Source: a bacterium
GTDB lineage: Bacteria > Electryoneota > Tariuqbacteria > Tariuqbacterales > JADHWD01
Direction of reading: 5' to 3'
DNA: 51,569 nucleotides
Assembly: GCA_016783645.1 (NCBI GenBank)
Contig: JADHWD010000001.1
Span: 1-51,569 of the forward strand
The translations under genes and the position numbers were made by a program. Shown piece after piece: positions 1,345-47,097 of the stretch. Under the pieces are notes generated by a model that saw only the letters and a list, made by a program, of their open reading frames with translations, was not told the origin of the DNA and ran no database searches. The stretch's first letter is position 1. Each line of letters opens with the position of its first letter.

Positions 1345-1376
1345 CTTGCAACTTGTAACTTGTAACTTGCAACTTT
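1345..1376. repeat. Heptamer tandem repeat CTTGYAA x4.5, 18 nt after the stop codon
   Basis: cttgcaa cttgtaa cttgtaa cttgcaa cttt read directly. Confidence 0.85.
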
Positions 1377-1385
1377 ATAGATAAA

Positions 1386-2804
1386 ATGCGAATATTTTTA
1401 ACGAGACCCGATTCCGACATACCCGCCGCACCGCCGCCTTTGGGAGCGATGTGTTTAGCGGCTTATATCCGCCAGTTCCGTGATGATGAGATAAAGATAT
1501 ATGACGCCCGCGCCCGTATGGCTTCCCCCGAAGAAGCGGCGGAGGAAGCGAAGAATTTCGACCCCGATGTGGTGGGTATTTCCTCTTTCAGCATGGAGCG
1601 TGATGTCAGTTTCGCTTTAGCGAAGGCGGTGAAAAAGGTGAAGCCTTCCGTTAAAGTGTTCATCGGAGGACCCTTTCCATCTTCGGACCCGGAAGGCGCT
1701 TTATCGGAAGCGGCGATTGACGCCGCCTTCATCGCCGAAGGCGAGCAATCCTTTTTACATGCGCTCAACAGCTTGGAGAGCTCCGGCGAAATCGAACCTG
1801 CAGACGGCATCGCTTTACGGAAAAACGGCGGAGTCATCGTTAAAGGCAAACCCGGATTAATCGAAGATCTGGATTCACTGCCGGTTCCGGCCTGGGATTT
1901 GGCGGGACTTGACTATTATTTCCATAAACCTAAAAAACGCCCCATGATGAACCGCCTGCCGCGGCACCGCCACGGAGCTTCAGTGTTCACCACCAGGGGC
2001 TGTCCCTACGGCTGCTCCTATTGCCATAACATCTTCGGTAAGATAACCCGCAAGCGCAGTCCGGAAAAAGTTATCGAAGAACTCAGGATTCTTTATCATG
2101 ATTATGGCGTGCGGGAATTGGAATTCCTCGATGATATCTTCAATGTGGATATGAAGCGGGCGGGAAGAATATTCGACTTGATGGAAACCGAAAGATTGAA
2201 ATTCAATATCACTTTCCCTAACGGTCTGCGGGCGGAATTGATGAATGATGAACTGCTGGATAAATTCAGACGCAACGGCGTATATTGGATCACTTTCGCT
2301 ATCGAATCCGGTTCGCCCCGCATACAGAAAGAGATCAAGAAGAATGTCAATCTTCCTAAAGCCAAGGCTAACATCGAATTAGCGGCGAAGAAGGGGATAA
2401 ATGTCAACGGTTTCTTCATGATGGGTTTCCTCAATGAGACCGATGAAGACATCATGCAGACCATCGAATTCGCCGCTTCGACGAGGCTGATAATCGCTTC
2501 ATTTTTCATCCTGACTCCTTTCCCCAATACGGAGATATATGACCAGGCGGCCGCCGCCGGGCACAATATGCTGGCTAATTACAGCGATTATCATGACCTG
2601 TCGGTCAATCTCAGTAAAGTATCAAATGAGAGACTCTGGCAATTGAAGAGGCTCGCCTATAAGAAATTTTATCTGAATTTCAAGCGGGTATGGTATATCC
2701 TAAAAGCCAACCCTTTCAAGATAGGACTATTCGACGGTATCTGGATGTTGATCAAGATGGTGGTGTGGGGAAAAGAGATATTGAAGCGGAAGCAGGTGAA
2801 TTAA
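1386..2804 (+). CDS. Class B (B12-binding-domain) radical SAM protein, subfamily A, paralogue 1
   Basis: 472 aa. N-terminal Rossmann-type pattern (MRIFLTRP..PPLG..DVVGISSF..FIGGP), cluster motif 'CPYGCSYC' and 'AIESGSP' motif. Collinear with the ORFs at 3320, 5482, 6915 and 8795. Confidence 0.9.
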   Translation: MRIFLTRPDSDIPAAPPPLGAMCLAAYIRQFRDDEIKIYDARARMASPEEAAEEAKNFDPDVVGISSFSMERDVSFALAKAVKKVKPSVKVFIGGPFPSSDPEGALSEAAIDAAFIAEGEQSFLHALNSLESSGEIEPADGIALRKNGGVIVKGKPGLIEDLDSLPVPAWDLAGLDYYFHKPKKRPMMNRLPRHRHGASVFTTRGCPYGCSYCHNIFGKITRKRSPEKVIEELRILYHDYGVRELEFLDDIFNVDMKRAGRIFDLMETERLKFNITFPNGLRAELMNDELLDKFRRNGVYWITFAIESGSPRIQKEIKKNVNLPKAKANIELAAKKGINVNGFFMMGFLNETDEDIMQTIEFAASTRLIIASFFILTPFPNTEIYDQAAAAGHNMLANYSDYHDLSVNLSKVSNERLWQLKRLAYKKFYLNFKRVWYILKANPFKIGLFDGIWMLIKMVVWGKEILKRKQVN

Positions 2805-2809
2805 AACCC

Positions 2810-2873
2810 AGTTTGCAAGTTGACAGGTTGGCAAGTTTACAAGTAACAAGTGGCAAGTAACAAGTGGCAAGTA
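2810..2873. repeat. Degenerate 7-8-nt tandem repeat (GTNNRCAA)n, 6 nt after the stop codon
   Basis: gtttgcaa gttgacag gttggcaa gtttacaa gtaacaa gtggcaa gtaacaa gtggcaa gtag. Confidence 0.85.
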
Positions 2874-3319
2874 GCGTGGCGGTTAAACATGGTCAGCAAG
2901 AAAATATAATCGGCGATAATTTTTGAAAAAGAAATTCTTGAAACGGATTTTGTAGACATCTTAGGGCTGACCATGCCACCCAGTTATGTATGACATGGGT
3001 GGCACAGCCAGCCCTTATAATGAGATAACAAGATGTAATAATTTCATAGCTGTAAATATGGTATTACCATTTATCATACCGGCTGGCTGTGCGAGAGAAG
3101 AAGAAATTAAAAGTGCCTTTTAACCGTGATTAGCAAAAATTATCCCGTCAGGTTACTCTTCATTTGAAACCCGACGGAAACGGAATGACGATATGGTGAA
3201 GCGTTTATTTGATTTAAGATAAAAAAATTTATAACTTTAAAATTTGGGTATCTTGCTCGTATGATTCATTTTATAACAGTTTTGGAAGGTATCATGAATC
3301 CGTAGGGTGAGGAATTTAT

Positions 3320-4720
3320 ATGAAAATACTGTTGATACGCCCTCATTCCGATGTCCCCGCAGCGCCACCGCCCATAGGTCTGATGTACCTTACAGGATAC
3401 CTCCGTACTAAAAATCAGCATGAAATAGAGATATATGACGGCCGGGTTAAGGAAACCGGCGCCGGCTTTACCGCCGATGTGATAAAATCCGCTCGTCCTG
3501 ATATAGTAGGAATCACCGCTTTTTCCATGGAAGCTGATCAGGCGCATCAAATCGCCCGCATATCCAAACATGAAGCGCCGTCCGCCGCGGTGATTATCGG
3601 CGGACCCTATCCCTCCTCCGACCCGGAAGGAACATTATCCGACCCCGCGGTGGACTTCGCGGTAAAAGGTGAAGGCGAAATCGTATTGGCTCAGTTATTG
3701 GAAACGCTGGAGAACGGATGGAAGGTTGACGATGTCGGCGGTTTGGCTTTCAGGAGAAACGGCGGATTGGTAGATACTGGTCCCTGTGAAACAGCGGCTA
3801 ACCTGGATGATATTCCGTTCCCAGCCTGGGATATGATTGATTTGGAGGAGTATTTCCGCCCCAGCGCCTCTAAAAGGCGGTTGACTAATCCCATACAAAT
3901 GAAAAGGCGGGGGATTCCGGTGGTATCCACCCGGGGATGCCCTTATGGCTGCACCTACTGCCATAACATCTTCGGACGGAAACTGCGCAAACGGTCGCCG
4001 GAAAATGTTATCGCCGAACTTAAATGGCTCAAAGAGAAGCTGGCGATTGAGGAAATCGAATACATCGATGATGTTTTCAATTTGGACATCAAACGCGCCA
4101 AGCTGATAATGGATATGATGATAGCGGAGAAGCTGAATCTCAAGTTCTCTTTCCCCAACGGACTGCGAGCCGACCAGATGGATGAGGAACTAATCGATAA
4201 GATGAAAGCCGCCGGATGCTACCGCATCAATTACGCCATAGAATCCGGTTCTGACCGGATTCAGAAGCAGATACATAAGAATCTGAATTTAGAGCGGGCG
4301 ATGGAGATAATTAATTATACGGCGGAGAAGAATATCAGCGTAGGCGGATTTTTCATGCTGGGTTTCCAGGATGAGACCGAGTCGGAGATGCGGCGCACCA
4401 TCGATTTCGCCTTGAAATCCAAATGCCACACCGCTTCTTTTTTCATCTTAACTCCATTCCCCGGCACCGAGATGTACCGGGAAGCGGCTGCTGCGGGATA
4501 TGATATGGAGGGGATATATTCCGATTACGGAGCGGTGTCCGCTAATATATCGCAGGTGTCCTCCGAACAAATATTGAAGATGCGTAAAGACGCTTTCCGG
4601 CGGTTTTATTTCGATCCTATAAGGATGTGCTCGATCTTCCGCACTACGCCGAATAAGATGGCGCTTTTACGGAATGTGATTAGGACAGCGAAATTGTCAT
4701 TTCTGGGGAAGGAATATTAA
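3320..4720 (+). CDS. Class B radical SAM protein, subfamily A, paralogue 2
   Basis: 466 aa; 'MKILLIRPHSDVPAAPPPIG', 'CPYGCTYC', 'AIESGSD'; GAGG upstream of the ATG. Confidence 0.9.
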   Translation: MKILLIRPHSDVPAAPPPIGLMYLTGYLRTKNQHEIEIYDGRVKETGAGFTADVIKSARPDIVGITAFSMEADQAHQIARISKHEAPSAAVIIGGPYPSSDPEGTLSDPAVDFAVKGEGEIVLAQLLETLENGWKVDDVGGLAFRRNGGLVDTGPCETAANLDDIPFPAWDMIDLEEYFRPSASKRRLTNPIQMKRRGIPVVSTRGCPYGCTYCHNIFGRKLRKRSPENVIAELKWLKEKLAIEEIEYIDDVFNLDIKRAKLIMDMMIAEKLNLKFSFPNGLRADQMDEELIDKMKAAGCYRINYAIESGSDRIQKQIHKNLNLERAMEIINYTAEKNISVGGFFMLGFQDETESEMRRTIDFALKSKCHTASFFILTPFPGTEMYREAAAAGYDMEGIYSDYGAVSANISQVSSEQILKMRKDAFRRFYFDPIRMCSIFRTTPNKMALLRNVIRTAKLSFLGKEY

Positions 4721-4721
4721 G

Positions 4722-5297
4722 ATGGTAAGAAATCGCGAAGATTTTGCCAAGAAGATTCTAGAAATTGACAACGAAAAAATTGTTGATATTATATATGAGA
4801 ACTCAAATAATCTTGTTAATATAGAATTAGAGAGACATCGCCGAATAGTTGATAAAGGAAGAGATTATCTTGGAATGACTTTGATCATTTTAGGAATAAT
4901 AGTTGGAATCGGAAATATTGTATTTAGTAAATATTCTATAGGATCTTTGTCTAATCTGAGTCTGATTCCAATTTTGGTTTTTTTATTTTACATTGCTTCA
5001 ATTACTTTATTCGTAGTGTCATTGTTTGCGTATTATAAAATTTCCTTTATACATGAGTATTTATGGACAGATTTTGAAGATACGGTTTTTATTCCAGATG
5101 TTGAAGAAAATGTTACATATTATTATAAATGCTCCCAACTTGTCAATACCTGGTATAGGATTGAATTGTTCAGACAATTGAATGAAAAATTGGTGTTTCG
5201 ACTTAATAAGGCAAGCCTATTATCTTTGGGAGGTATTGTTTCCATAATTATTTCATTGATCTTAGTTCTTTGTGGTTTAATATTTTCAGGAGTATAA
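4722..5297 (+). CDS. Hypothetical membrane protein (about 3 TM helices), low-GC
   Basis: 191 aa. The ATG lies 1 nt after the upstream stop. Hydrophobic stretches are 'LGMTLIILGIIVGIGNIVF', 'LIPILVFLFYIASITLFVVSLFAYY' and 'LLSLGGIVSIIISLILVLCGLIF'. No family recognised. Confidence 0.6.
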   Translation: MVRNREDFAKKILEIDNEKIVDIIYENSNNLVNIELERHRRIVDKGRDYLGMTLIILGIIVGIGNIVFSKYSIGSLSNLSLIPILVFLFYIASITLFVVSLFAYYKISFIHEYLWTDFEDTVFIPDVEENVTYYYKCSQLVNTWYRIELFRQLNEKLVFRLNKASLLSLGGIVSIIISLILVLCGLIFSGV

Positions 5298-5299
5298 TC

Positions 5300-5482
5300 A
5301 TGAATTCATTAAGAAATAGCAATAAAAAAAAATCTACTTTGCACAATGGGGAAAAGAATCAGGATAATACAAATAAGCCTTCCCCCAATGATATAATTTC
5401 TCCAACAGCCGGTCAGTGGATAACAGAAGGCATAAATCCCAATAAAGTTACAAAGAAGGGATCACAGAAAAGTAACAAATAA
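5300..5482 (+). CDS. Small hydrophilic Lys/Asn-rich protein (60 aa), function unknown
   Basis: AGGAG (5288-5292) lies 7 nt upstream of ATG 5300. The stop overlaps the next start (TAATG at 5480-5484). No Cys and no TM segment. The ORF-track start at 5270 overlaps the preceding gene and was not used. Confidence 0.45.
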   Translation: MNSLRNSNKKKSTLHNGEKNQDNTNKPSPNDIISPTAGQWITEGINPNKVTKKGSQKSNK

Positions 5483-6882
5483 TGAAAATCCTCTTCATAC
5501 GGCCTAACAGCGAAGTGCCCTCCTCCGCCCCGCCTATGGGTCTGCTCTATCTCGGAGCTTACCTGCGGGAATACGGCAGACATGAGATTGAAATCTACGA
5601 CGCCCGTAATCTGGGCTCTAACCTGAAACAGATCGGCCAGGCGGTTAAAAAATCTAATCCCGATATCATCGGAATCACCGCCTTCTCCATGGAACAGAAG
5701 GAAGCGCACCAGCTCGCCAAATTATCCAAGGAGATCTATCCCGATAGACCGGTGGTCATCGGAGGCCCCTATGCCACTTCACAGCCCGAAGATGCTATGC
5801 GGGATAACAATATCGACTATGCTGTCATCGGTGAGGGCGAACGCTCCGGCTTGAGGCTGTTCAATATGCTGGAAAACGGAGGAAATCCCGCAGAAGTCAA
5901 TGAAATCGCTTTCCGCAATGATGATAAAGTTGTCCGCACCAATTCCGTGGATTACATCATCGACCTCGATGAGATTCCCTTTCCCGCCTGGGATCTGATA
6001 GATTTCGAAAGTTATTTCGGCAGTGAAGGCGGTAAGCGTAAGACCTTCAACCAGCATCAGATGAAAGAACGGGTTTGGCAGTTGATAACTACCCGCGGCT
6101 GTCCCTATAGATGCCTTTATTGCCATAATCTATTCGGTAAGATGATTCGCAAGCGTTCAGTGGAAAATGTCATAGAAGAACTGAAAATTTTAAAAAATAA
6201 GTATAATGTCGAAGAGATAGAGATCATCGATGATATTTTCAATCTTGACCTCGTCCGCGCTAAGGAGATTCTCCGCAGTATAATCGCCGAAAAACTCGAT
6301 CTCAAGTTCTGCTTCCCCAACGGGCTCAGATCTGACCGTTTCGATGAAGAACTACTCGACTTAATGAAAGAAGCGGGTGCCTACCGATTAGTTTTCGCCA
6401 TTGAATCGGGTTCTCCCCGCATACAAAAACTAATCAGGAAAAATGTCAAACTCGATATCGCCCAGAAAAATATCGAACTCGCCGCTCGCCGCGGTTTTTC
6501 TATCGGCGGATTTTTTATGATCGGATTTCCCACCGAAACCGAAGAGGAAGTGATGAATACCATCAAATTCGCCCTCGCTTCTAAGATGGTGACCGCCACT
6601 TTCTTCATGGTTACTCCGTTCCCCGGCACCGAACTGCATAAGCTGGCGCTCGATTTAGGCTTCGAACTGCCCGCTGAATATGAACACTATCAAAAAGTAT
6701 CCCTAAATGTATCAAAAGTCCCAACAGTAAAATTGGAGCGGCTCCGCCAATTAGCTTTGCGTAAATTTTATCTCGATCCGCGGCGGATAATTCAATATAT
6801 GAAGACCACTCCCTGGCGGCACCGTTTCTTCCAAAAATTATATATCCTAATAATGGCGACTCTGTTCAAATATGAGAAATAG
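5482..6882 (+). CDS. Class B radical SAM protein, subfamily A, paralogue 3
   Basis: 466 aa; 'MKILFIRPNSEVPSSAPPMG', 'CPYRCLYC', 'AIESGSP'. Confidence 0.9.
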   Translation: MKILFIRPNSEVPSSAPPMGLLYLGAYLREYGRHEIEIYDARNLGSNLKQIGQAVKKSNPDIIGITAFSMEQKEAHQLAKLSKEIYPDRPVVIGGPYATSQPEDAMRDNNIDYAVIGEGERSGLRLFNMLENGGNPAEVNEIAFRNDDKVVRTNSVDYIIDLDEIPFPAWDLIDFESYFGSEGGKRKTFNQHQMKERVWQLITTRGCPYRCLYCHNLFGKMIRKRSVENVIEELKILKNKYNVEEIEIIDDIFNLDLVRAKEILRSIIAEKLDLKFCFPNGLRSDRFDEELLDLMKEAGAYRLVFAIESGSPRIQKLIRKNVKLDIAQKNIELAARRGFSIGGFFMIGFPTETEEEVMNTIKFALASKMVTATFFMVTPFPGTELHKLALDLGFELPAEYEHYQKVSLNVSKVPTVKLERLRQLALRKFYLDPRRIIQYMKTTPWRHRFFQKLYILIMATLFKYEK

Positions 6883-6914
6883 TTATTCACTGTGAATCTC
6901 CTATTCGTTTAATC

Positions 6915-8333
6915 ATGAAGGTGTTATTCCTACGGCCGCATTCGACAGTTCCCGCCTGCACACCGCCGCTTGGAGTGCTGTCCTTGACCAGTTATATTCG
7001 AAAATATGGCGGACACGAAGCCACTATTTTTGATGGCAGAGTGTTAATGATTCCACATGAGCGAATCAAACCCTATATAGAGCATTACAATCCTGACATA
7101 GTCGGTATCACTGCGATGTCAGCGGAGAGGAATCAAGCGCACGAACTCGCAGAATTATCAAAAGAGCTGTTCCCTAAAGTTCCGGTTGTTATCGGAGGAC
7201 CTTATACTACCGCCGAATGGAATAGAGTCTTGGCGGACAAAAACATCGATTACGCAGTGATCGGTGAGGGAGAATCCACACTGTTAAATCTGCTTAAGTT
7301 TCTTGAAGAAGGTAATAATTATCCCGAAATCAAGGGGCTGGCTTTCAGGAAAGACGGGATCCCGCTCTTCTTTGGTTTTCAGGAGTCAATCGCGGATTTG
7401 GATTCCATTCCCATGGTGGCGTGGGACGCCATAGATTTGGAGCTCTATATCCACAATAAGAAGAAGCGGTGCGGGATGAATCAGCATTGCAGTTCGGAGC
7501 GGGTAGCGCCGGTGTTAACCACCAGGGGATGTCCATATCAGTGCTCTTACTGCCATAATATGTTCGGCAAGAAACTGCGCCAGCGTTCGGCGGAACATGT
7601 GATGAATGAACTGATCTATTTGAAGCGCAATTATGATATCAAAGAGATTGATATCATAGATGATATCTTCAACTTTGATAAAGCGCGGGCGATGAAGATT
7701 TGCGGCCTTATAATCGAAGAGAAGCTGAATATCAGATTCACCTTCCCCAACGGACTGCGTACGGATTTGATGGATGAAGAGCTGGTCGATAAACTGATAG
7801 AGGCTGGCGCCCGCCGCTTTGTGTATCCTATAGAATCAGGTTCTCCCGAAGTCCAAAAGCGGGTCAAAAAAAATTTAAACCTGGAAAAAGCGAAAAAAAT
7901 CATCGATTATACCGCCAGTAAGAATGTTTCTGTAGGCTCTTACTTTATATTGGGTTTTATCGATGAGACGGAAGAAGAGATGCGGATGACCATCAATTTC
8001 GCCTTCAAATCGAAGATAGTCACCGCTTCTTTCTTCGTCCTGCAGCCTTTTCCCAACACTAAAATCTATGAGCAAGCGGTTGAAGCGGGTTACATCAAGC
8101 AGGAAAAAGAGCTGCAACAATATTACAGCGCCATTCAAAACATCTCCAAGGTATCAAAAGAGAGGATTGACAAACTGCGGAGATACGCCATGTGCAGATT
8201 CTATTTTAATCCTTGGAGGATGTATCGATTTTTCAGAACGACTCCCGTCAGACACGCGTTTTGGACAAAGGTCAAACTAATCATGTTGTATTTATTCACT
8301 ACCAATCCGGAGGAGAAGGGCGCGTTGTTTTAG
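6915..8333 (+). CDS. Class B radical SAM protein, subfamily A, paralogue 4
   Basis: 472 aa; 'MKVLFLRPHSTVPACTPPLG', 'CPYQCSYC', 'PIESGSP'. Confidence 0.9.
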   Translation: MKVLFLRPHSTVPACTPPLGVLSLTSYIRKYGGHEATIFDGRVLMIPHERIKPYIEHYNPDIVGITAMSAERNQAHELAELSKELFPKVPVVIGGPYTTAEWNRVLADKNIDYAVIGEGESTLLNLLKFLEEGNNYPEIKGLAFRKDGIPLFFGFQESIADLDSIPMVAWDAIDLELYIHNKKKRCGMNQHCSSERVAPVLTTRGCPYQCSYCHNMFGKKLRQRSAEHVMNELIYLKRNYDIKEIDIIDDIFNFDKARAMKICGLIIEEKLNIRFTFPNGLRTDLMDEELVDKLIEAGARRFVYPIESGSPEVQKRVKKNLNLEKAKKIIDYTASKNVSVGSYFILGFIDETEEEMRMTINFAFKSKIVTASFFVLQPFPNTKIYEQAVEAGYIKQEKELQQYYSAIQNISKVSKERIDKLRRYAMCRFYFNPWRMYRFFRTTPVRHAFWTKVKLIMLYLFTTNPEEKGALF

Positions 8334-8368
8334 TCGTTAGTTAAGTAGTTAAGCGGTAAAACAGTAGA

Positions 8369-8434: not shown

Positions 8435-8542
8435 ATCCCACAAATTTATCGCTAAATTAAGCGCTTAACTTGGAGGCGATCCTTCACTTCGTTCAGGATG
8501 ACATATTGTCTGACATGATGCAAAGTCTAAAGTCCAGACAGG

Positions 8543-8687
8543 CTGTCCGAGAATACCGAAATCCTGTATGATCTGTTTTGATTTGATTCACTGGAAATTA
8601 TGGATATTATGGAAATATAAATATTTAGAATATCCATCATTTCCATTATATCCAGTGAATTTATTCACTTTTTCTATTCTCGGACAG
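8543..8687. mobile_element. MITE-like nested inverted-repeat element (non-coding)
   Basis: 13-nt terminal inverted repeat ctgtccgagaata (8543-8555) / tattctcggacag (8675-8687). Inner 10-nt inverted repeat attcactgga (8586-8595) / tccagtgaat (8651-8660). A solo end copy agtctgtccgag lies at 47123-47134. Confidence 0.45.
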
Positions 8688-8794: not shown

Positions 8795-10213
8795 TTGAGA
8801 GTATTGTTTTTAAGGCCGCATTCGTCGATACCATCATCGGCGCCGCCGACAGGATTGTTGTCTTTAACTAGTTACTTGAGGAAATATGGGGACTATGAGA
8901 TAACGATTTTCGACGGCAGGGCTTATATGACTCCGACTGAGCAGGTTAAACCTCTGATAAAACAACATAAACCTGATGTAGTCGGAATCACCGCTTTTTC
9001 TCCGGAACAGCGGGAAGCGCATGAACTGGCGGAACTATCTAAAGAATTATTTCCGGGGATACCGGTGATTATGGGCGGTCCTTACACCACCAGTCAATGG
9101 GCTAAGGTGTTAGCGGATGAAAATGTGGATTATGCAGTGGTCGGCGAAGGCGAATTGACTTTGCTAAAATTGCTGAAAAGCATGGAGGAGGGTGAAAGAT
9201 ATCCCGAAATCAAGGGATTAGCTTTCAAGAAGAACGGTGAACAGATATTCTTCGGTTTCCCGGATTTCATCGAAAATATAGACACTATTCCGATGGTAGC
9301 TTGGGACGCGATAGATCTGGAATATTATTTCCGCAACAAGAAGAAGCGTTCGGGAATGAATCCCCATCCAAAATCCAACCGCACGGTGCCGATTTTCACC
9401 TCCAGGGGATGCCCTTACTTGTGCACTTACTGCCATAATGTATTCGGTAAAAGAATGCGCAAGCGTTCGGTGGAGCATGTGATGGAGGAACTCATCTATC
9501 TCAAGCGAAATCATGACATCAAGGAAATCGACATCATCGATGACATCTTCAATTTAGATAAAGAGCGAGCTAAGATTATATGTGACCGGATAATCGAAGA
9601 GAATCTGAACATTGGCATCGCTTTTCCCAATGGGCTGCGCACCGACTTGATGGATGAAGAGCTGATTGACAAGCTGGTGGAAGCGGGTGCTTTCCGCTTC
9701 ATTTACGCTATCGAATCCGGTTCCCCTAAAATTCAGAGGAGCGCCAGGAAGAATCTCAACTTGGAAAAAGCTAAAAGAATCATCGATTATACTGCCAGGA
9801 AGAATGTATCCGTCGGCGGATTCTTTATGTTTGGGTTCTTGGATGAAACGGAAGAAGACATGAGGATGACCATCGATTTCGCGGTTAAATCGAAGATGGT
9901 GACCGCCTCATTTTTCATCCTGCAGCCGTTCCCTAACACGGAAATATATAACCAAGCGATTGAGAAAGGCTACCCCCTGCCGGTAAAGGCGCAGCAGCAG
10001 TATTACGGCGTGACTTACAACATATCTAAAGTTCCCAAGGACAGAATCGACAAGTTGAGAAACTATGCCGTCAGAAAATTCTATTTCAATCCTATGCGCG
10101 TATATCGATACCTGCGAACAACACCTATCAAATATGCCTTCTGGTTGAAAATGAAAATGATTCTCATGTATCTATTCAAGACTAATCCGGAGGAAGAGGG
10201 AGCACGTTTATAG
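8795..10213 (+). CDS. Class B radical SAM protein, subfamily A, paralogue 5
   Basis: 472 aa. TTG start with AGGAGG upstream. 'MRVLFLRPHSSIPSSAPPTG', 'CPYLCTYC', 'AIESGSP'. About two-thirds identical to paralogue 4 (67/102 N-terminal residues by hand). Confidence 0.9.
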   Translation: MRVLFLRPHSSIPSSAPPTGLLSLTSYLRKYGDYEITIFDGRAYMTPTEQVKPLIKQHKPDVVGITAFSPEQREAHELAELSKELFPGIPVIMGGPYTTSQWAKVLADENVDYAVVGEGELTLLKLLKSMEEGERYPEIKGLAFKKNGEQIFFGFPDFIENIDTIPMVAWDAIDLEYYFRNKKKRSGMNPHPKSNRTVPIFTSRGCPYLCTYCHNVFGKRMRKRSVEHVMEELIYLKRNHDIKEIDIIDDIFNLDKERAKIICDRIIEENLNIGIAFPNGLRTDLMDEELIDKLVEAGAFRFIYAIESGSPKIQRSARKNLNLEKAKRIIDYTARKNVSVGGFFMFGFLDETEEDMRMTIDFAVKSKMVTASFFILQPFPNTEIYNQAIEKGYPLPVKAQQQYYGVTYNISKVPKDRIDKLRNYAVRKFYFNPMRVYRYLRTTPIKYAFWLKMKMILMYLFKTNPEEEGARL

Positions 10214-10247
10214 TTAAGTGGTTAAGTGGTTAAGTAGTTAAGTGGTT
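10213..10247. repeat. Octamer tandem repeat GTTAAGTR x4.4 starting on the last base of the stop codon
   Basis: gttaagtg gttaagtg gttaagta gttaagtg gtt. Confidence 0.9.
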
Positions 10248-10318: not shown

Positions 10319-10422
10319 TAGCCCCCCTTTTCAAAGGGGGGAATATTTTAGTAGCCCGGTTTCTCCGAAACCGGGAAATTCTGGCAGGTCACACCCGCCT
10401 GCGGCGTGCAAGACCTGCCAGA
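10319..10422. repeat. Hairpin mosaic array 1 (three different palindromic elements)
   Basis: ccccccttt/aaagggggg; gtagcccggtttctccgaaaccggg (10351-10375); ctggcaggtcacacccgcctgcggcgtgcaagacctgccag (10381-10421). The last two recur at 42873-43460. Confidence 0.85.
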
Positions 10423-10434
10423 ACAGGATTTTTT

Positions 10435-10471
10435 AACTTGTTAACTTGTCAACTTGCAGACTTGTAGACTT
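10435..10471. repeat. Octamer tandem repeat RACTTGYN x4.6
   Basis: aacttgtt aacttgtc aacttgca gacttgta gactt. Confidence 0.85.
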
Positions 10472-10690: not shown

Positions 10691-10866
10691 ACAATTTTCA
10701 GGGTCGTTTATCATAAATAGTCCAACCATAAAATGTCATTCCCGCAAGTACATTGCTGGGCGGACGCGTCGGGAATCGATTCCGGACAAGCCGGAATGAC
10801 GAAAATGGGGCGTTGCTTTTTGACGAAGCAAAATATCACTTTCACACTTTCACACGTATTTAAATT

Positions 10867-17413: not shown

Positions 17414-17416
17414 TTG

Positions 17417-17626
17417 GGTTAAGTGGTGAAGTGGTGAAGCGGTGAAGTGGTTAAGTGGTGAAGCGGTGAAGTGGTGAAGTGGTGAAGCGGTGAAGTGGTG
17501 AAGTGGTGAAGCGGTGAAGTGGTGAAGCGGTGAAGTGGTGAAGCGGTGAAGTGGTGAAGTGGTGAAGCGGTGAAGTGGTGAAGTGGTGAAGCGGTGAAGT
17601 GGTGAAGTGGTGAAGCGGTGAAGTGG
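17417..17626. repeat. 26-unit octamer microsatellite GGTGAAGY with 24-nt (T,T,C) super-period
   Basis: Parsed unit by unit. There are 24 ggtgaag[t/c] units and 2 ggttaagt units. It starts 4 nt after the TGA at 17411-17413 and ends 77 nt before ATG 17703. Confidence 0.95.
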
Positions 17627-17702
17627 GATTGATGGTAATTGCGCCATAAGATTGGAGAGAACGGATTTCGCAACGGAATATTTGTACTAAAAAAGGCTTT
17701 TT

Positions 17703-18431
17703 ATGAAGAAATTATCAGATCGAGAGATAGAAGATATTTACAATTTTGTAAAGTCATTCCACGAAAAATTTCTTGAAAAATCAGGAGTAATACTACCAAG
17801 CTTAAGGAAATCTGGTAAATTCACAAAGTCAGCATTGACGCTTGTTTTTCTTGCTAAAGATTATCCTAAAACCAGAATAGTATCGAAAAAGGAAATTACG
17901 GAATTCATTCGTAAATATTATCCTGACACAAATGATGTCCAAGATGCAAGACATCTGGGAATGCAGAAGGGATGGTATATCGCCTCCGGAACTCGAGGAA
18001 ATGGTATAGATGATTTGGGTTACGGTGAATATAAATTAGTGTCATTAGAGGAACCTCATCCGAATTTCAAACTTCATCGCAAAGAAATAGTCGGAGAACT
18101 CAATTGGGATGAGATTAAATCAAAATATGATTTTCGCTGCGCCTCTTGCGGTTCCAAAGAAGGTGAACCTAATTTTCGCTATCCCGGCACTACCACAAAA
18201 TTGACTCAGGGTCATATGGATCCTAATAAACCTTTGACTAAGGATAATACCATCCCGCAATGTGAAAAATGCAACCGCCCGGATAGAAATTACTGGATAT
18301 ATGATAGAAAGGGAAGAGTTATAAAAGTGGCCGATCCTTCCGCAGTCGCTAAGTCTGATGAAAGTGTTAAGTGGAAGATATATAAGATGCTATATAATGA
18401 TTATAGAGGTAAAAATCCCAATGATGAATGA
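17703..18431 (+). CDS. Putative type II restriction endonuclease, HNH (beta-beta-alpha-Me) type
   Basis: 242 aa, low-GC. 'CASCGS ... QGHMDPNKPLTKDNTIPQCEKCN' gives CxxC...H...N...CxxC. It is directly coupled to a DNA methyltransferase gene. Confidence 0.6.
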   Translation: MKKLSDREIEDIYNFVKSFHEKFLEKSGVILPSLRKSGKFTKSALTLVFLAKDYPKTRIVSKKEITEFIRKYYPDTNDVQDARHLGMQKGWYIASGTRGNGIDDLGYGEYKLVSLEEPHPNFKLHRKEIVGELNWDEIKSKYDFRCASCGSKEGEPNFRYPGTTTKLTQGHMDPNKPLTKDNTIPQCEKCNRPDRNYWIYDRKGRVIKVADPSAVAKSDESVKWKIYKMLYNDYRGKNPNDE

Positions 18432-19407
18432 TTATCTTAATCGGGTAATTTGCGGCGATGCGCTGGAGATACTTCCTAAATTTGATCCAAAATCCATCGA
18501 CATCGTACTAACTGATCCGCCTTATTTCTTGGATAAAATGGATAACAATTGGGACCACGAGAAAGTATCGAGTAATAAATATCAACATGCGGTGAAATCT
18601 TTGCCGCCGGGGATGAAATTTGACCGGGAACAGGGCAAACGGTTTTACAAATGGTTTCATAAAGTATCTTTAGAAGTGCATCGTGTCCTGAAACCCGGCG
18701 GATTTTTCTTCTCCTTTTCCAGTCCCAGATTATATCATCGCATGGCTTGCGCAGTCGATGACGCAGGCTTGTTAATAAAAGACTGCTTCATCTGGCTTTA
18801 TACACAAAATCAGGTGAAAGCGATGTCGATTAATCATTTCATCGACAAGATGGATGCAAGCGATGAATTAAAGAATGAACTAAAAGAGCGATTCGCCGGC
18901 TGGAAAACTCCGCAAATAAAATCTTGTTTTGAACCTATATTAATGGCGCAGAAACAGCCGGACGGCACTTTTTTAAATAATATGCGAAAACATAAAATCG
19001 GACTCTTGAATACAAATATCAAGATCGGGAAAAACATGTATCCCGCCAATGTCATGATGATTGACAATATAGATGAAGCGATAGATAAATATTTTCTTAT
19101 CGGCAAACCGGATAAATCCGAGAAAAAGGGATTTAATCACCATCGAACCGTCAAACCCTTGAAAATCTGTCAATATATTATTGAATTGTGCGCTTTTTCT
19201 CCGGAGGCGATTGTCTTAGATCCGTTTGCAGGAAGCGGAACAACGCTGGTAGCAGCAAAGAATTTAAATAAAAATTTCATCGGTATTGACATCAATCAAG
19301 AATATGTCAATCTCGCAGAAAAGAGATTAGGGATGTTGACAGATAACGAAAAAACACTATCAAACCGCCAAGATATTAATACAGTTTTACCGATATTCAA
19401 TCGATAG
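18421..19407 (+). CDS. DNA amino-methyltransferase (N6-adenine or N4-cytosine), beta class
   Basis: Motif IV 'TDPPYF' precedes motif I 'LDPFAGSGTT'. Start placed at ATG 18421, which overlaps the REase stop in ATGATGAATGA. The ORF-track start at 18358 lies inside the REase gene. Confidence 0.85.
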   Translation: MMNDYLNRVICGDALEILPKFDPKSIDIVLTDPPYFLDKMDNNWDHEKVSSNKYQHAVKSLPPGMKFDREQGKRFYKWFHKVSLEVHRVLKPGGFFFSFSSPRLYHRMACAVDDAGLLIKDCFIWLYTQNQVKAMSINHFIDKMDASDELKNELKERFAGWKTPQIKSCFEPILMAQKQPDGTFLNNMRKHKIGLLNTNIKIGKNMYPANVMMIDNIDEAIDKYFLIGKPDKSEKKGFNHHRTVKPLKICQYIIELCAFSPEAIVLDPFAGSGTTLVAAKNLNKNFIGIDINQEYVNLAEKRLGMLTDNEKTLSNRQDINTVLPIFNR

Positions 19408-20828: not shown

Positions 20829-20865
20829 GATATGTGATATTAGATATTTGATATGTGATATTTTT
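20829..20865. repeat. Heptamer tandem repeat GATATKW x5, starting on the base after the stop codon
   Basis: gatatgt gatatta gatattt gatatgt gatattt; the same unit follows the unrelated gene ending at 47038. Confidence 0.9.
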
Positions 20866-41581: not shown

Positions 41582-41602
41582 TTTTGTGAATACTCCAAAA
41601 CC

Positions 41603-41812
41603 GTCATTTCATGTTCCCGACAGGTTTCAAGGGCAAAGCCCGTAACCTGCCGGGGGTATGCCTGCCGCTTTACGCCTCCTGCGGAGGCTTGAAAAACGGC
41701 AGGAACGAAAAGATCGATTATGAGTATGTCGGGGTCAGGGACGACCCCGACTACATGGTGGTGACGTCTACCTTAGTCTCGTAGTCCGGGTCGTCCCTGA
41801 CCCGGACATGTA
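41603..41812. repeat. Hairpin mosaic array 5
   Basis: cccgacaggtt..aacctgccggg (41616-41654), cctgccg..gcctcctgcggaggc..cggcagg, and the inverted pair gtcggggtcagggacgaccccgac (41728-41751) / gtccgggtcgtccctgacccggac (41784-41807). Confidence 0.85.
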
Positions 41813-41937
41813 TAATCCCAAGCTTCAGAAAACTAAACTGTTTGGATTATGAATCGAGTTTTGAATGACGAAAGTTACTGATCTTCAAAGGAATATAATG
41901 TTAACATATTTTAAAATAATCGCACAGCGAGGTTTCC

Positions 41938-42876
41938 ATGAAACCCGAATATCGAATATCGACTTTTATTATTTTATTTATTTTCGTTGCAGCGCCTTGT
42001 TACTCTGAGGGGCTTTCCCATATCCCCGGGGCTTTTGTAGATATAGGCTATGGTGCAAGGCCTATGGGGATGGGCGGCGCTTTCACCGGACTTGCCGACG
42101 ACCATAACGCCGTGATGTGGAATCCGGCGGGGATGTGCCGGGTGCAGGGGAACGGTATATCCTTCATGTGGGCTAAACAGTTCGGATTCGTTCCCTATAA
42201 TTATTTGAGCTATAGCCGGGAATTGGGCAAGGATTACAGGATCGGCGCCGGTGTGATTTTCAGCGGCGATGAAGTACTCAGCGAATCGACAACTTTAGTA
42301 TCTTTCGCATCCCCTTTAACCAGAGCCTGGTATAAACTATCCGATGTGTATTTGGGTTTAAGCGTCAAACTGCGCTGGGCTTCCTTCGGAAACAATTCCG
42401 ACGGAGATGCTGACCGAGTCACCGGCGACGCTTTCGGCTACGGCTTCGACTTTGGCATCATGGTGATTCCCAATGACAAATTTTCCGCCGGATTATTATT
42501 CCGCGATTTAGTGAATGACATCACCTGGAATTCTTCCTCCTCCGGCAAATACTCCGAATCGGTCCCGGAAGAATTGACTATAGGTTTCTCTTATAAACCC
42601 ACTTCAAGGTCGATAGTCGCGTTCGATTTGCGCAAAGCATTGTATAAGGATGTGGAGGACAGGATAATCATCGGCGTCGAACAGCAGTTGTTCGGATTAT
42701 TGAAACTCCGCGCGGGATGGGGCAGAAGTCTCAGCGCCGAATACTCCAACCAGGATATCGCATTAGGCTTAGGATTATATAGGGCTATCGGCAAGCTGGA
42801 TTTCATGTTCGATTTCGCCTATATGCTTAATGATTTGAAAAACACACCCCGGGTGGGAGCGAGTATTAACTGGTAG
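41938..42876 (+). CDS. Outer-membrane beta-barrel protein, PorV/PorQ- or UPF0164-like
   Basis: 312 aa; signal peptide; 'GARPMGMGGAFTGLADDHNAVMWNPAGM' resembles the N-terminal motif of PorV-type barrels (from memory); sits next to T9SS cargo genes. Confidence 0.5.
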   Translation: MKPEYRISTFIILFIFVAAPCYSEGLSHIPGAFVDIGYGARPMGMGGAFTGLADDHNAVMWNPAGMCRVQGNGISFMWAKQFGFVPYNYLSYSRELGKDYRIGAGVIFSGDEVLSESTTLVSFASPLTRAWYKLSDVYLGLSVKLRWASFGNNSDGDADRVTGDAFGYGFDFGIMVIPNDKFSAGLLFRDLVNDITWNSSSSGKYSESVPEELTIGFSYKPTSRSIVAFDLRKALYKDVEDRIIIGVEQQLFGLLKLRAGWGRSLSAEYSNQDIALGLGLYRAIGKLDFMFDFAYMLNDLKNTPRVGASINW

Positions 42877-43580
42877 CCCGGTTTCTCCGAAACCGGGGAA
42901 TTCTTTCCCGTCAGGTTACGGACTTCGTCCTTGAAACCTGACAGTAACAAACTTATATGTGGTGTCGACTGCGGAGAGTCGACACCACAAGGAATGTAAG
43001 GACAGAACAATGTTCTGTCCCTGCTGGATTCCCGCCTGCGCGGGAATGACATATTGGCATCAAGCTCTTCATTATTCCTTGTTCGATATTCCTTGTTCGA
43101 TATTCAGATGGCAGCCCGGTTTCTCCGAAACCGGGGGAAATAAATTTACTACGGATATACAGGATATTCAGGATAAACCCTCATGCGCCGGCGGCGCACA
43201 ACTTAGCATGAAAATAGCGGTTCTGGGCTCTTGGCTCTCCCCTCTCGTTCCCACGCTCCAGCGTGGGAATGCATACAAAGGTGGATTAAGAACCCACCCT
43301 GCACCTCAGCGACTTTTGTAGGGGCGAAAGGTTTTCGCCCTCATTGCGGTTGAAAATTATTGCGAGGGCAAACGCCGTTTGCTCCTACAGGCAGCCCGGT
43401 TTCTCCGAAACTCAGGATGCTGGCAGGTCACACCCGCCTGCGGCGTGCAAGACCTGCCAGAACAAGAAACTAGACCCTAATCCCTAGCCCCCAGTCCCTA
43501 TTTTCAAAGTAAGTAGGGGCGAAGCATTTTTTTATTAACAGTACTATTTTACTAAGGTTACGAAAATGCTTCGCCCTTAC
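42873..43580. repeat. Hairpin mosaic array 6, the largest (at least 12 elements from about 10 families)
   Basis: In order: gtagcccggtttctccgaaaccgggg (42873-42898); cccgtcaggtt..aacctgacag (42907-42944); gtggtgtcgactgcggagagtcgacaccac (42959-42988). Then ggacagaacaatgttctgtcc; ggattcccgcctgcgcgggaatgacat (43026-43052); TTCCTTGTTCGATAT x2; the cccggtttctccgaaaccggg element again (43111-43137). Then ataaaccctcatgcgccggcggcgcac.. (43173-43217); ttcccacgctccagcgtgggaa (43248-43269); ggtggattaagaacccacc; gtaggggcgaaaggttttcgccc. Finally ctggcaggtc..gacctgccag (43420-43460) and the long hairpin 43513-43580. Confidence 0.9.
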
Positions 43581-43682
43581 AATTACGATTTTATAATGTA
43601 GAGGCAGGCCTTCTGTCGACGCTTCGTTCTTGGAGCAGGCAAGGTCTTGGCGGGTTTAAAAAACACCTTACAAATTCTGCAG

Positions 43683-43730
43683 TTACCGTTTACTGTTTAC
43701 TATTCACTGTCAACTGTCAACTGTCAACTA
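43683..43730. repeat. Heptamer tandem repeat (YNACTRT)n x6.9 upstream of the T9SS cargo gene
   Basis: ttaccgt ttactgt ttactat tcactgt caactgt caactgt caacta. Confidence 0.85.
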
Positions 43731-43768
43731 ATTATTATATTTTGCCGATTTTAAACACGGAGATTATC

Positions 43769-46700
43769 ATGACTGCTAAATTAAAAAACAACGGGGCATC
43801 GGCAATTATCCTCACCATTCTGATGCTGTTCGCCATCTTCACCCCTCAGAATGCTGAAGCCACCTGGTTCAATCTGCTTTACGAAGATTTCCATACTCTA
43901 TGGATTACCTGGCCCTGGTACATCGGCGGACATTGGTGGCAGGTTGTTCCACCCGCGGGGATCAGATGGGGTATCCAATGGGAATTCGCCCATACTTCCA
44001 CCGATTATCAGGCGGCATGGTGCTGCGCCTTCAATGGCACTCAGCAATCGGGACTCACTCCGTTCATGGATCAGTATCCCGCCAACTTGAACACCCGCAT
44101 GTTCTGGGGACCTTTCAATCTGGTAGGCGCCGCCGCCGCGCAAGCCACATTCTGGTATTTCAACGACTCCGAACTGTTCAATGATTTCTGCGCTTATGAG
44201 GGTTCACCCAACGGCAATAATTGGTACGAAGGAGGCCGTATATCGGGACCTACGGATTGGAATTGGCACATGGGAGTACTCAATTTGGACTCATTGAACA
44301 ATGGCGCAGTCAGTATGCTCGAAGAGCCTAATGTCTATATGGGATATCGATTTTACGCTAATTCCAATACATATCGCGGCTGGGGCACTTTCATCGATGA
44401 TATAGTGCTGGGTTACGATGACGGACTCTTCGATCTGGCCGCCGGAGTCCCGGTGTTACTCAACGCTGATTCCATTCAGGTGTACTATGTCTATGAAACC
44501 GAGCCTATCAGGATGGCATTCCCCTGGTCTTGCGAAGGCATAGGTGAAACCGGATTATTCAATCTAACCTGCGAGATAGACGGCGAACCCTTCTATTCCA
44601 TCGACTTGACCGCTGTCGGCGGCGAAGATTATATCACAATCGCCGATATGATCTGGTCATCAACGGAATTAGGACCTCATCAGGTCGTATGGACGCTCGA
44701 TACCGGCGATGTAGTCGCGGAAACCTACGAAGACAATAATGTGGGGACGCTGGACTTTGAACTGGTGGAATTCGATTCTCTGCCTTATATAGAAATACTG
44801 CGTCCCACTTTCGGCGATTCCGCGGAAGCCGGATTCTGGGTAGTGTTCAACGCGTATGATGCGGAAGCTAACGCTCAGGTCAATCTGTTCTATGATCAGG
44901 ATACTATCGCTTTTAACGGATTCCTGATTAATTCACAGCCTCTTTGGGAAGATTCCCTCTCTATGCCGGACAGCATCTATTGGAATTTGATGACATTTCC
45001 TCCCAATTCCCAATATTATGTCTATGGTTCTATCTATGATTACGAGCATAGCGTGCTGATGGTCTACAGCGAAGCGCCGGTAACAATATACGACATGCCG
45101 CCTACCTTCGAATTCTTCACTCCGGTTGAAAATGACACTGCGGATGATCAATTCATAATCGAATTCGATGTCTATGACGCCCGTTCCAACGCGACCGTAT
45201 ATTTCTATTATGACCAGGATAACACCGGAAACGATGGAATTCAAATTAATCAAATCCCAGTCTTGGAAAACACTACCACCGGCCAATATACCTGGAATAC
45301 ATCTAACCTGCCGGATAATAGTTCATATTATCTGTACGCCAAGGTTAGTGACGCATATAATCCGCCGGTCTATGTTTACAGCGATTATCCGGTGAACATA
45401 TATCATCCGGTTGACCAGCAGTTCAACCTCAACGATAATTGGAACTTGATTTCTCTGGGTGTAACCCCAACTGTTAACAGTCTTTCCGCATTATTCCCCA
45501 CCGCTATTGCGGCTTATGAATTCACCGGTGGTCCTGGCGGCTCTTATACCATGGCTGAGGAATTATATCCCGGCAAAGGGTATTGGGTCAATGTGCCGGA
45601 TGCGGTCACAATCACCATTTCAGGTACGCCGTTTAATTACTATACAACTGCAGTATCGCCTCCCTGGGAACTCAAGGGCAGTGTACTAAATCCCGCAAAC
45701 GCCATATCAACGCCTGCGGGCGGGATCAATGTGCTATATTGGTTCAACGGCAGCACTTATGAGATGATAACCGCCGGCAGTCTGCTTCAGCCGGATTACG
45801 GCTATTGGATGAATTTCGTCAGTAATGTGACTCAACTGACGGTAGGAACGCCGCCGCTGTCCGGCAAGGAAGATAACATCAGCCGTTTAACCGATAATAC
45901 CGACCAAATATGGGATCTGGATATAACCGTGACCGGTGAAACCGGCAGCGCTCCCAATATTTTCACCGTTAATATCGGCGCCGACAACGCCTGTTCTTAT
46001 ATCCCCGCTCCTCCCCCGCCCCCGGCTTATATGGTATGGGCTGAACTCTACGATGAATACTGGAATGGGCCCTATTATACTATGTATATTTCCGGCAGTG
46101 AAGATGCGTTCACCTGGATGCTTCATATCGATCCTAACGGTAATGTAATGCCACCGGTTTCACGGACCGCGGTGGTGGATTGGGATGCGGCGCAGCTGCC
46201 GCCTACCGGGAATTTCGCCATTGAGGATATGTCAGGCAATGTGATAGTGGCGGATATGCGGAATACATCATCATTTGAAACCAGCGGCACTACTAATCAA
46301 TATTTCTATATCATAGGCACAGATTTAGCTCAGGAAGTGTCGGTTATATTAAATCCGATAAATCCGCCGATTATCATTCCGGCGAACGGCGGTTCGTTCA
46401 ATTTTGAGATCGGAGCGGCGAATAACAGCGCCAGCGCGGTTATGATAGATGTCTGGACTTATGTATATCTGCCGAGCGGAACGCAGTACGGCCCATTATT
46501 GAATGCCGGACCGGTCAATGTCGCCGCTGGAGGGTCTCCCTACCGCCTGCGTTCGCAGGCAGTACCGGCTAACGCGCCTGCGGGAATTTACACTTACAAC
46601 GCCTATATCGGCGACTATCCGGATTCAGTGATAAGCCAAAACTTCTTTGAATTCGAGAAGTTAAGCGTTTCCGACGGCGGGGAGTCAATTCCCGATTGGA

Positions 46701-47038
46701 AAAACTGGGGTGAAAGTTTCGACGGCTTCGGTGAAGAAATTACCGTGGCTGTAATTAAGGAAAATTCACTCTCAAAAGCTTATCCCAATCCCTTCAATCC
46801 TACAACCGCAATCAGATATACGATGAAAGAAGCCGGACTCGTTAAGCTTATAGTCTATGATATCACCGGGCGGGAAATCGCAAAGCTGATTGACGGCTGG
46901 GAATCTGCTGGTGTGTATGAAGTGATATTCGATGGTTCGGAACTGCCCAGCGGCGTGTACTTCTGCCGCATTAATATCAAAGATTCAAACGGCGGGAAGG
47001 AATTCCAGGCGATTGAGAAGATGCTGTTGGTGAAGTAA
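43769..47038 (+). CDS. Secreted T9SS cargo protein (type-A C-terminal sorting domain), function unknown
   Basis: ATG 43769 with GGAG 6 nt upstream; the ORF-track TTG 43742 is less likely. Signal peptide 'AIILTILMLFAIFTPQNAEA'. C-terminus 'YPNPFNPTTAIRYTM...LIVYDITGREIAKL...GVYFCRI'. Confidence 0.85.
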   Translation: MTAKLKNNGASAIILTILMLFAIFTPQNAEATWFNLLYEDFHTLWITWPWYIGGHWWQVVPPAGIRWGIQWEFAHTSTDYQAAWCCAFNGTQQSGLTPFMDQYPANLNTRMFWGPFNLVGAAAAQATFWYFNDSELFNDFCAYEGSPNGNNWYEGGRISGPTDWNWHMGVLNLDSLNNGAVSMLEEPNVYMGYRFYANSNTYRGWGTFIDDIVLGYDDGLFDLAAGVPVLLNADSIQVYYVYETEPIRMAFPWSCEGIGETGLFNLTCEIDGEPFYSIDLTAVGGEDYITIADMIWSSTELGPHQVVWTLDTGDVVAETYEDNNVGTLDFELVEFDSLPYIEILRPTFGDSAEAGFWVVFNAYDAEANAQVNLFYDQDTIAFNGFLINSQPLWEDSLSMPDSIYWNLMTFPPNSQYYVYGSIYDYEHSVLMVYSEAPVTIYDMPPTFEFFTPVENDTADDQFIIEFDVYDARSNATVYFYYDQDNTGNDGIQINQIPVLENTTTGQYTWNTSNLPDNSSYYLYAKVSDAYNPPVYVYSDYPVNIYHPVDQQFNLNDNWNLISLGVTPTVNSLSALFPTAIAAYEFTGGPGGSYTMAEELYPGKGYWVNVPDAVTITISGTPFNYYTTAVSPPWELKGSVLNPANAISTPAGGINVLYWFNGSTYEMITAGSLLQPDYGYWMNFVSNVTQLTVGTPPLSGKEDNISRLTDNTDQIWDLDITVTGETGSAPNIFTVNIGADNACSYIPAPPPPPAYMVWAELYDEYWNGPYYTMYISGSEDAFTWMLHIDPNGNVMPPVSRTAVVDWDAAQLPPTGNFAIEDMSGNVIVADMRNTSSFETSGTTNQYFYIIGTDLAQEVSVILNPINPPIIIPANGGSFNFEIGAANNSASAVMIDVWTYVYLPSGTQYGPLLNAGPVNVAAGGSPYRLRSQAVPANAPAGIYTYNAYIGDYPDSVISQNFFEFEKLSVSDGGESIPDWKNWGESFDGFGEEITVAVIKENSLSKAYPNPFNPTTAIRYTMKEAGLVKLIVYDITGREIAKLIDGWESAGVYEVIFDGSELPSGVYFCRINIKDSNGGKEFQAIEKMLLVK

Positions 47039-47051
47039 GATTCCCGTCAAA

Positions 47052-47097
47052 GATATTTGATATGTGATATGTGATATTTGATATGTGATATTTGATT
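47052..47097. repeat. Heptamer tandem repeat GATATKT x6.5, 14 nt after the stop codon
   Basis: gatattt gatatgt gatatgt gatattt gatatgt gatattt gatt; same unit as 20829-20865. Confidence 0.9.

Follow-up and report, generated by a model that had tools for sequence, protein, structure and literature searches.

Short tandem arrays with a repeat unit of 7 or 8 nts, lying just after the stop codons or before the start codons of many unrelated genes, were noticed in the window, a stretch of bacterial DNA of 51,569 nts that was analysed at its full length (GenBank assembly GCA_016783645.1, contig JADHWD010000001.1, positions 1 to 51,569 of the forward strand). These arrays belong to a known class, the polar intergenic heptamer (7–8-nt) microsatellites, which comprises the short tandemly repeated repetitive sequences (STRRs) of cyanobacteria, the GGGNATC repeats of Xanthomonas and Nostoc and the Beggiatoa-type TAACTGA repeats. 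New here are the lineage, the extreme density, the presence of more than 200 unit types and a polarity that is independent of G-quadruplex potential. The first-pass annotation of the window had stated that no described signal class matches, and this was mistaken, as the placement and strand rule had been published (PMC4692102), and polar TAACTGA repeats likewise (PMC4679880). The interpretation preferred here, to which a probability of about 0.6 is assigned, is that the arrays are slippage-driven members of this spacer-filling class whose polarity is built in, that those which are paired form stems like those of the intervening sequences (IVSs) of rRNA, and that those which are unpaired do not on their own constitute a terminator or processing signal.

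The window is contig C169 of a metagenome-assembled genome (MAG) of 2.73 Mb in 221 contigs, with 45% GC, a completeness of 78% and a contamination of 1.6%. The host is an uncultured marine bacterium. That it is of the FCB type, and not a cyanobacterium, follows from its type IX secretion system (T9SS) sorting domains, its Rho and the relatives of its RpoB, the nearest matches to which are MAGs at 65–73% identity, followed by Cytophagales and Gemmatimonadota at 55–59%. Arrays were detected with Tandem Repeats Finder (TRF), its rows being merged, and the null sequence was generated by a Markov-3 model. Genes were called with a rough open reading frame (ORF) caller that applies a longest-ORF rule; the positions of stop codons are exact.

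Polarity of the arrays

At both ends of genes, and whatever the direction of the gene, the C-poor strand of an array runs 5′ to 3′ away from the adjacent gene and into the spacer. An array with more G than C is termed G-type and one with more C than G is termed C-type, scored on the plus strand in the window and on the sense strand of the adjacent gene genome-wide. Within 5 nts of a stop codon 186 arrays are G-type and 17 are C-type, and 6–20 nts before a start codon 12 are G-type and 78 are C-type. The edge totals obeying and breaking the polarity are 256:32 at stops and 113:23 at starts (binomial p = 1.5e-44 and 1.8e-15, respectively), and it is present in all four types of spacer. Because the C-poor strand always leaves the adjacent gene, the units found after stops and those found before starts are the same but oppositely oriented, a relationship overlooked in the first-pass annotation; the oriented units common to stop and start edges number 39, compared with 7 if flipped. 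Along the spacer, a G-type array followed by a C-type array is found in 83 spacers and the reverse order in 8.

Orientation is predicted far better by G–C skew than by stop triplets (177:47) or start triplets, and both stop-codon supply and start-codon avoidance, being much weaker predictors, were discarded as the cause of polarity. The skew is about +0.48 in stop-side arrays. In spacer DNA outside the repeats the skew, though of like sign, is weak (+0.04 to +0.10), on which ground the amplification of local composition was rejected as the source of polarity. The 14 nts on the gene side of arrays are not in register with the array. Arrays without any GG or CC keep the polarity (143:20 at stops and 57:12 at starts). 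An artefact of gene calling was also rejected, because the longest-ORF rule biases against the start-side orientation that is observed, and the four spacer types agree. Inflation by paralogues does not account for the polarity either, as it is little changed when paralogous flanks are removed, and the T9SS family whose products end in VLMK has only about 12 genes.

Abundance and placement

In the whole MAG, TRF returned 1,374 rows of period 7, 317 of period 8 and 746 of period 9, and Markov-3 sequence yielded 23, 19 and 29 rows per Mb at the same periods. Period-7 rows are thus at about 22 times the Markov expectation (1,374 versus about 63). Merging gave 1,289 arrays of period 7 and 304 of period 8 (about 1,600), amounting to 50.9 kb in all, or about 9% of intergenic DNA. 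Coding DNA is depleted of arrays: intergenic DNA, though only 20% of the genome, holds 89% of the merged period-7 arrays, and 629 of the 1,520 spacers (41%) have at least one. There are 203 distinct canonical heptamer units, a variety too great for a single mobile element, as had been argued from the window. The AAG (or CTT) core that had been thought to be shared by many units is present in 636 of 1,355, by estimate about twice the chance level, though the excess of G over C is the more general rule.

Arrays are non-randomly placed at gene ends genome-wide, as had been claimed for the window. Some 14.6% of period-7 and 22% of period-8 arrays lie within 5 nts of a stop codon, compared with 3.2% and 3.1% when each is placed uniformly within its own spacer. 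With a strict null that bars the 60 nts upstream of every start, the values are 18–20% versus 7–8% in co-directional spacers and 12–18% versus 2.5% in convergent spacers. The stop-side excess is concentrated at −3 to +9 nts relative to the stop. No comparable abutment was found at starts genome-wide, and arrays with a 9-nt unit have none at either gene end.

Period-7 rows number 504 per Mb here, and 466 and 132 per Mb in two genomes of the same order, in which the edge polarity is alike. Genomes of the same phylum mostly have 0–70 per Mb, with three at 100, 150 and 207. In sediment metagenome contigs of an unrelated lineage that carry a distant DUF1848 gene (L145, L146 and L152), five different heptamer arrays are densely packed upstream of the gene, and array-rich genomes seem to be common in sediment metagenomes.

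The T9SS cargo genes that end in VLMK before the stop codon share a C-terminal sorting domain conserved at the DNA level and a conserved 3′ flank (contigs C18, C43, C53, C96, C120, C122, C139, C189 and C215 of the genome, G000). The flank consists of GAATAGT arrays, then GAAAGTGT arrays, and then a 9-nt-repeat element. In this family the gene end and its arrays have evidently been duplicated or converted as one.

Turnover of repeat units

The arrays are not artefacts of assembly, as those at 47052 and 47243 recur in contigs from the sequencing runs of four or more studies, which covered aquatic, marine and estuary metagenomes. Logan contigs stop inside long arrays, as expected for repeats that exceed the assembler word. 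A count of exact period-7 tandems, which involves no threshold, gave 830, 145, 59 and 23 with 2, 3, 4 and 5 copies respectively, with a tail beyond ten; for periods 5, 6, 9 and 10 the same count has almost nothing above two copies. The distribution of copy numbers is quasi-geometric, without a peak or a preference for four units.

The octamer array GGTGAAGY counts 26 units in the window, whereas another MAG (L123/L130) has 16, in a different pattern of T and C; both arrays follow a DUF1848 protein that is 100% identical. Arrays gain and lose whole units quickly, and the earlier suggestion that they are slippage hot spots is upheld by this strain difference and by the quasi-geometric copy numbers. 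Between contigs of one population short arrays do not differ, the GATATKT array at 20829 included; of three further proteins of the window that were looked up by exact match, two returned same-population contigs only and one was not on record. Orthologues of the DUF1848 protein elsewhere are only 43–48% identical, which is too distant for comparison of spacers. The gene-side edges of arrays are sharp, and distal units are slightly more degenerate than gene-proximal ones (1.28 versus 0.97 mismatches per unit, p = 0.003).

The DNA past the octamer array is unrelated between the window and the L123 strain. Directly beyond the 26 units the window has a restriction-modification pair (17627–19407; a 242-aa protein and an N6/N4 methylase), and in its place L123 has a hairpin and a PMP-like gene (L123:2050–3220). 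Because the pair is replaced beyond the array in the other strain, the array lies exactly at a synteny breakpoint.

Arrays as arms of S23p cassettes

The genome has eight S23p loci (PF05635/TIGR02436), all on contigs other than that of the window, and one of the copies has a weak, sub-threshold likeness to Avd of diversity-generating retroelements (DGRs). Arrays are present at both ends of seven of the eight, compared with 6.6% of all genes (p about 4e-8). The arms at these loci are reverse complements of each other, and in folding 42–64 bp join them, with z down to −10. S23p-flanking arrays share position and polarity with the other arrays and form complementary arms that give stems of 40–60 bp. 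In eight other genomes of the phylum, array-poor ones included, 13 S23p loci were examined and 11 have clearly complementary arms of 7-, 8- or 9-nt units; of the remaining two, one has direct-repeat arms and the other an unclear right arm. In these relatives the left arm begins at the upstream stop codon, either on it or next to it, and between the end of the right arm and the following start there are 10–25 nts. The arms are G-first at no fewer than 10 of the 13 loci.

Several individual cassettes may be recorded. Two occur in consecutive spacers of a riboflavin operon (L239; G015, OY769902.1:895500–900800), where they precede RibB-like and RibH-like genes (names read from the flanking sequence), and the second has direct 9-nt arms. 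Two genera of one family share a cassette with AGTTGCG arms beside what is apparently the same neighbour gene (L262, G016:C43:22228–22710, and L263, G006:C4:158351–158810), and arm units can therefore last over long times. At 43073–43105 in the window there are 2.4 copies of a 14-nt unit, TATTCCTTGTTCGA, that matches an arm of the S23p cassette on contig C64 (…TTCCTTGTTCGATATTC…).

Origin and possible roles

Under the preferred interpretation, arrays would arise and change by replication slippage in a 7- or 8-nt register. The polarity, symmetric about genes, would be inherent in an inverted-repeat element that is G-first and fills spacers, and would not be a response to transcription of the neighbours. 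Whichever way round such an element goes in, both of its strands read G...C, and this would explain the polarity without appeal to neighbouring genes. Most arrays would be unpaired, ‘solo’ products of the same process, and these alone would be neither terminators nor 3′-processing signals. Paired arrays, by analogy with the rRNA IVSs, probably give stems that RNase III could cleave.

A number of results weigh against this interpretation. Neither the 7-nt register nor the G-first order is accounted for by anything computed. None of the arrays of the window flanks an S23p gene, and in the whole genome there is one S23p remnant only. Complementarity of two arrays in one spacer is depleted (0.6% versus 4.2% at or below −25 kcal), and that of arrays flanking an ordinary gene is not significant (p = 0.11). 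As there is no excess of complementarity within spacers or across genes, most arrays are not arms of intact stems, and stems across a spacer or a gene are not supported as their general state. Between S23p copy number and heptamer density the correlation is weak (Spearman 0.46, p = 0.075, n = 16 genomes), and one genome (G014) has 15 S23p copies at background array density. The slightly better conservation of gene-proximal units could mean that there is some constraint beside the gene.

A step further would be to regard arrays and S23p (Avd-like four-helix-bundle) cassettes as one system, in which a cassette-linked process makes or maintains the arrays and solo arrays are its footprints or its trans products. 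This is speculative and rather improbable, and the cassettes account directly for about 16 of the roughly 1,600 arrays. If it were true, STRRs, the Xanthomonas and Nostoc heptamers and the TAACTGA repeats would be given a common origin after more than 30 years. The consistent association with S23p provides a concrete hypothesis that is open to experiment.

Close to this is the possible but doubtful account in which IVS-like S23p cassettes, inserted between a stop and the next start, brought or generated G-first inverted arms and later lost their cargo, the arms drifting apart by fast turnover of units, so that most solo arrays would be what such cassettes left behind. In its favour, the unit families, period, position and polarity of cassette arms are also those of solo arrays, S23p genes have arrays beside them even in array-poor genomes, and an inverted G-first element yields gene-symmetric polarity without further assumptions. 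However, eight S23p loci and a single remnant are few beside some 1,600 arrays, paired solo arrays lack the excess complementarity, the correlation with S23p copy number is weak and complete deletion of the cargo would be needed in hundreds of spacers.

It is unlikely that the arrays are RNA signals of the adjacent gene, either elements of its 3′ untranslated region (for termination, processing, stability or protein binding) or leader elements that bind S1, Csp or CsrA-type proteins. Tight abutment of the stop, the fixed strand and the better conserved gene-proximal units would fit such signals. So would the 60 nts past stop-side arrays, which are somewhat more structured than control 3′ regions (34% versus 24% at or below −15 kcal, p = 0.002), and for the TAACTGA repeats a translational regulator has been proposed (MacGregor 2015; PMC4679880). 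On the other hand, with more than 200 different units a single binding protein is improbable, the number of units varies freely with no preferred value, and, the polarity being symmetric about genes, the 3′-end RNA and the sense leader are opposite in composition. No regulatory role was found by Rehm et al. for their repeats (PMC4692102). The termination or 3′-end-processing role that was among the earlier suggestions is not borne out, as arrays are unstructured as RNA, folding at about −6 kcal per 60 nts, and a scan of them for consensus terminators gave 25 matches with 20.5 expected, which is no excess, though such a scan is of little informative value.

Rho might act as a selective filter, since C-rich, G-poor untranslated RNA loads it. 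Right after a stop the C-poor orientation alone would then be tolerated, and C-type arrays would be tolerated only if close to the following ribosome-binding site or held in a stem by pairing. The C-type strand, with about 25% C and 9% G, is rut-like, the genome encodes Rho and G–C skew surpasses stop or start triplets as predictor of orientation. But most arrays are about 30 nts, shorter than a rut site, and C-type arrays in untranslated leaders should load Rho too. To our knowledge cyanobacteria lack Rho. The same polarity is reported for Nostoc (PMC4692102) and the control cyanobacterium is without the Rho RNA-binding domain, which makes such a filter very unlikely as the general cause.

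Action of the arrays via a G-quadruplex on the G-rich strand, as framed by Rehm et al., is rejected as a general cause and has next to no likelihood, for although the 152 of 1,355 arrays that have at least four GGG runs, the only ones capable of forming it, obey the polarity (23:0 and 22:1), arrays without GG or CC obey it equally and there is no preference for four units.

Knowledge of intergenic heptamer repeats goes back to 1990, and they serve in strain typing. With about 1,600 arrays, of more than 200 unit types, the present genome is an unusually rich example. In it the published position-and-strand rule proves to be general, as it is independent of G-quadruplex potential, of any single unit sequence and of the direction of the neighbouring gene. 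Explanations that depend on G-quadruplexes or on a single protein are therefore excluded as general accounts, and the rule points to a property of the spacer-filling element. In annotation, such arrays should be taken neither for new terminators nor for CRISPR-like loci.

Arrays of the window

The eleven arrays that the first-pass annotation had named all exist where it had placed them (found with TRF, then checked base by base for distance and strand type), and they are listed in Table 1 together with one at the start of the contig. Six lie −1 to 13 nts past stops (2811, 8338, 10213, 17417, 20829 and 47052), and all six are G-type on the plus strand, which is also the sense strand for the gene upstream. 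Five end 10–26 nts before starts (1345, 10433, 10837, 43683 and 47243), and all five are C-type. The array at 1345 had been filed as abutting a stop; it is C-type and closer to the next start than to that stop, and so belongs with the start-side arrays.

Table 1. Tandem arrays of the window, with their strand type and distance to the adjacent gene.
Feature	Position	Strand	Unit and copies	Type	Nearest gene edge	Basis
Array at contig start	1..26	+	GTTAAGA x3.7	G-type		TRF, sequence
Start-side array	1345..1375	+	CTTGCAA/AACTTGY x4.4	C-type	10 nt before ATG 1386; 17 nt after stop 1327	
Stop-side array	2811..2873	+	CAAGTNN(N), 7/8 nt	G-type	6 nt after stop 2804	
Stop-side array	8338..8353	+	TAGTTAAG x2 (weak, 2 copies only)	G-type	4 nt after stop 8333	
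Stop-side array	10213..10247	+	GTTAAGTG x4.4	G-type	First base is last base of stop TAG 10211-10213	
Start-side array	10433..10471	+	TTAACTTG x3 + ACTTGCAG x2.5	C-type	About 18-19 nt before ATG 10490 of small HicB-like ORF	
Start-side array	10837..10855	+	CACTTTCA x2.4	C-type	11 nt before TTG 10867	
Stop-side octamer array	17417..17626	+	GGTGAAGY x26	G-type	3 nt after stop 17413	
Stop-side array	20829..20863	+	GATATKT x5	G-type	0 nt after stop 20828	
Start-side array	43683..43729	+	TTACTGT x4 + ACTGTCA x3.4	C-type	12 nt before TTG 43742	
Stop-side array	47052..47096	+	GATATKT x6.4	G-type	13 nt after stop 47038	
Start-side array	47243..47324	+	TAACTCT x11.7	C-type	26 nt before TTG 47351	

The neighbouring genes have unrelated functions (B12-radical-SAM paralogues, DUF1848, a T9SS cargo protein and a transporter of the major facilitator superfamily). 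Across the radical-SAM gene the arrays at 1345 and 2811 are complementary (−28.9 kcal), and they are among the few exceptions to the unpaired state.

A hairpin of the type AGCCCGGTTTCTCCGAAACCGGG, resembling repetitive extragenic palindromes (REP-like) and without a U-tract, recurs past the distal ends of arrays (10350–10380 in the window, the C120:20049 and C10:9136 regions, and L123). The window also has 9-nt tandem repeats at 44–71, 179–206 and 8592–8654 (TTTCATCCC, TTTATCCTG and an inverted TGGAAATTA/ATATCCATC element). These are a separate class with 717 arrays genome-wide, of about 2.7 copies each and often palindromic; gene edges hold no excess of them, and they may represent regulator sites or a miniature inverted-repeat transposable element.

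Comparison with known repeat classes

The simple sequence repeats (SSRs) of contingency loci are likewise slippage-prone tandem repeats of variable unit number. Those, however, belong to surface or restriction genes, within whose ORFs or promoter spacers they lie, whereas the arrays considered here are depleted in coding DNA and occur after stops and in leaders of all gene classes, and assignment to the phase-variation class was rejected on this ground.

The STRRs described by Mazel et al. in 1990 are reportedly tandem heptanucleotides of heterocystous cyanobacteria, with many families in intergenic DNA. We know of no polarity rule in their definition. Their name is the older one for repeats of this kind. 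STRR heptamers are hypervariable enough to serve in strain fingerprinting (PMC5088731). Several heptanucleotide families dispersed in non-coding DNA are common to STRRs and to the present genome (203 units; 629 of 1,520 spacers), though the host here is not a cyanobacterium.

TAACTGA direct repeats, oriented in one fixed way toward starts, are described from Beggiatoaceae, cyanobacteria and some Bacteroidetes (MacGregor 2015; PMC4679880). Some overlap the upstream stop, and one set in Flexibacter litoralis is directly after a stop and reversed (PMC4679880). In Ca. Maribeggiatoa one unit is dominant and is mostly 1 nt before starts (PMC4679880). The present arrays are also intergenic heptamers with a fixed start-side orientation (78 of 90 C-type), and an AACT/AGTT core is found in 250 of the 1,355 units; the genome has no set of two or more copies of the literal TAACTGA. 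They differ in that stop-side arrays are equally prominent and that start-side arrays leave room for a Shine-Dalgarno sequence.

The intervening sequences of 23S rRNA that contain an S23p ORF (Coxiella, Leptospira) have complementary termini that form a long stem cut by RNase III (PMC4990558). The S23p cassettes of this phylum are similarly a small four-helix-bundle ORF between complementary arms, the arms being made of heptamer arrays. Unlike the rRNA sequences they lie between protein-coding genes and their arms are tandem repeats, and the arrays of the window flank no S23p gene.

The heptamers of Rehm et al. 2015 are GGGAATC in Xanthomonas and GGGGA(C/T)T in Nostoc PCC 7120, and about 90% of them are intergenic (PMC4692102). 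After stops they are on the coding strand at 0–50 bp and may overlap the stop codon itself, and before ORFs they are on the non-coding strand, again at 0–50 bp; spacers can contain convergent pairs, and length differs between close relatives (PMC4692102). Rehm et al. read the repeats through G-quadruplexes and found no regulatory role or function (PMC4692102). The present arrays are, in the same way, 7-nt tandems that are mostly intergenic (89%) and follow the same strand rule at stops (256:32) and at starts (113:23). In contrast to those heptamers they have more than 200 unit types instead of one, are mostly without the ability to form a G-quadruplex, show no preference for four units, and occur in another lineage at a much higher density, of about 500 period-7 rows per Mb.

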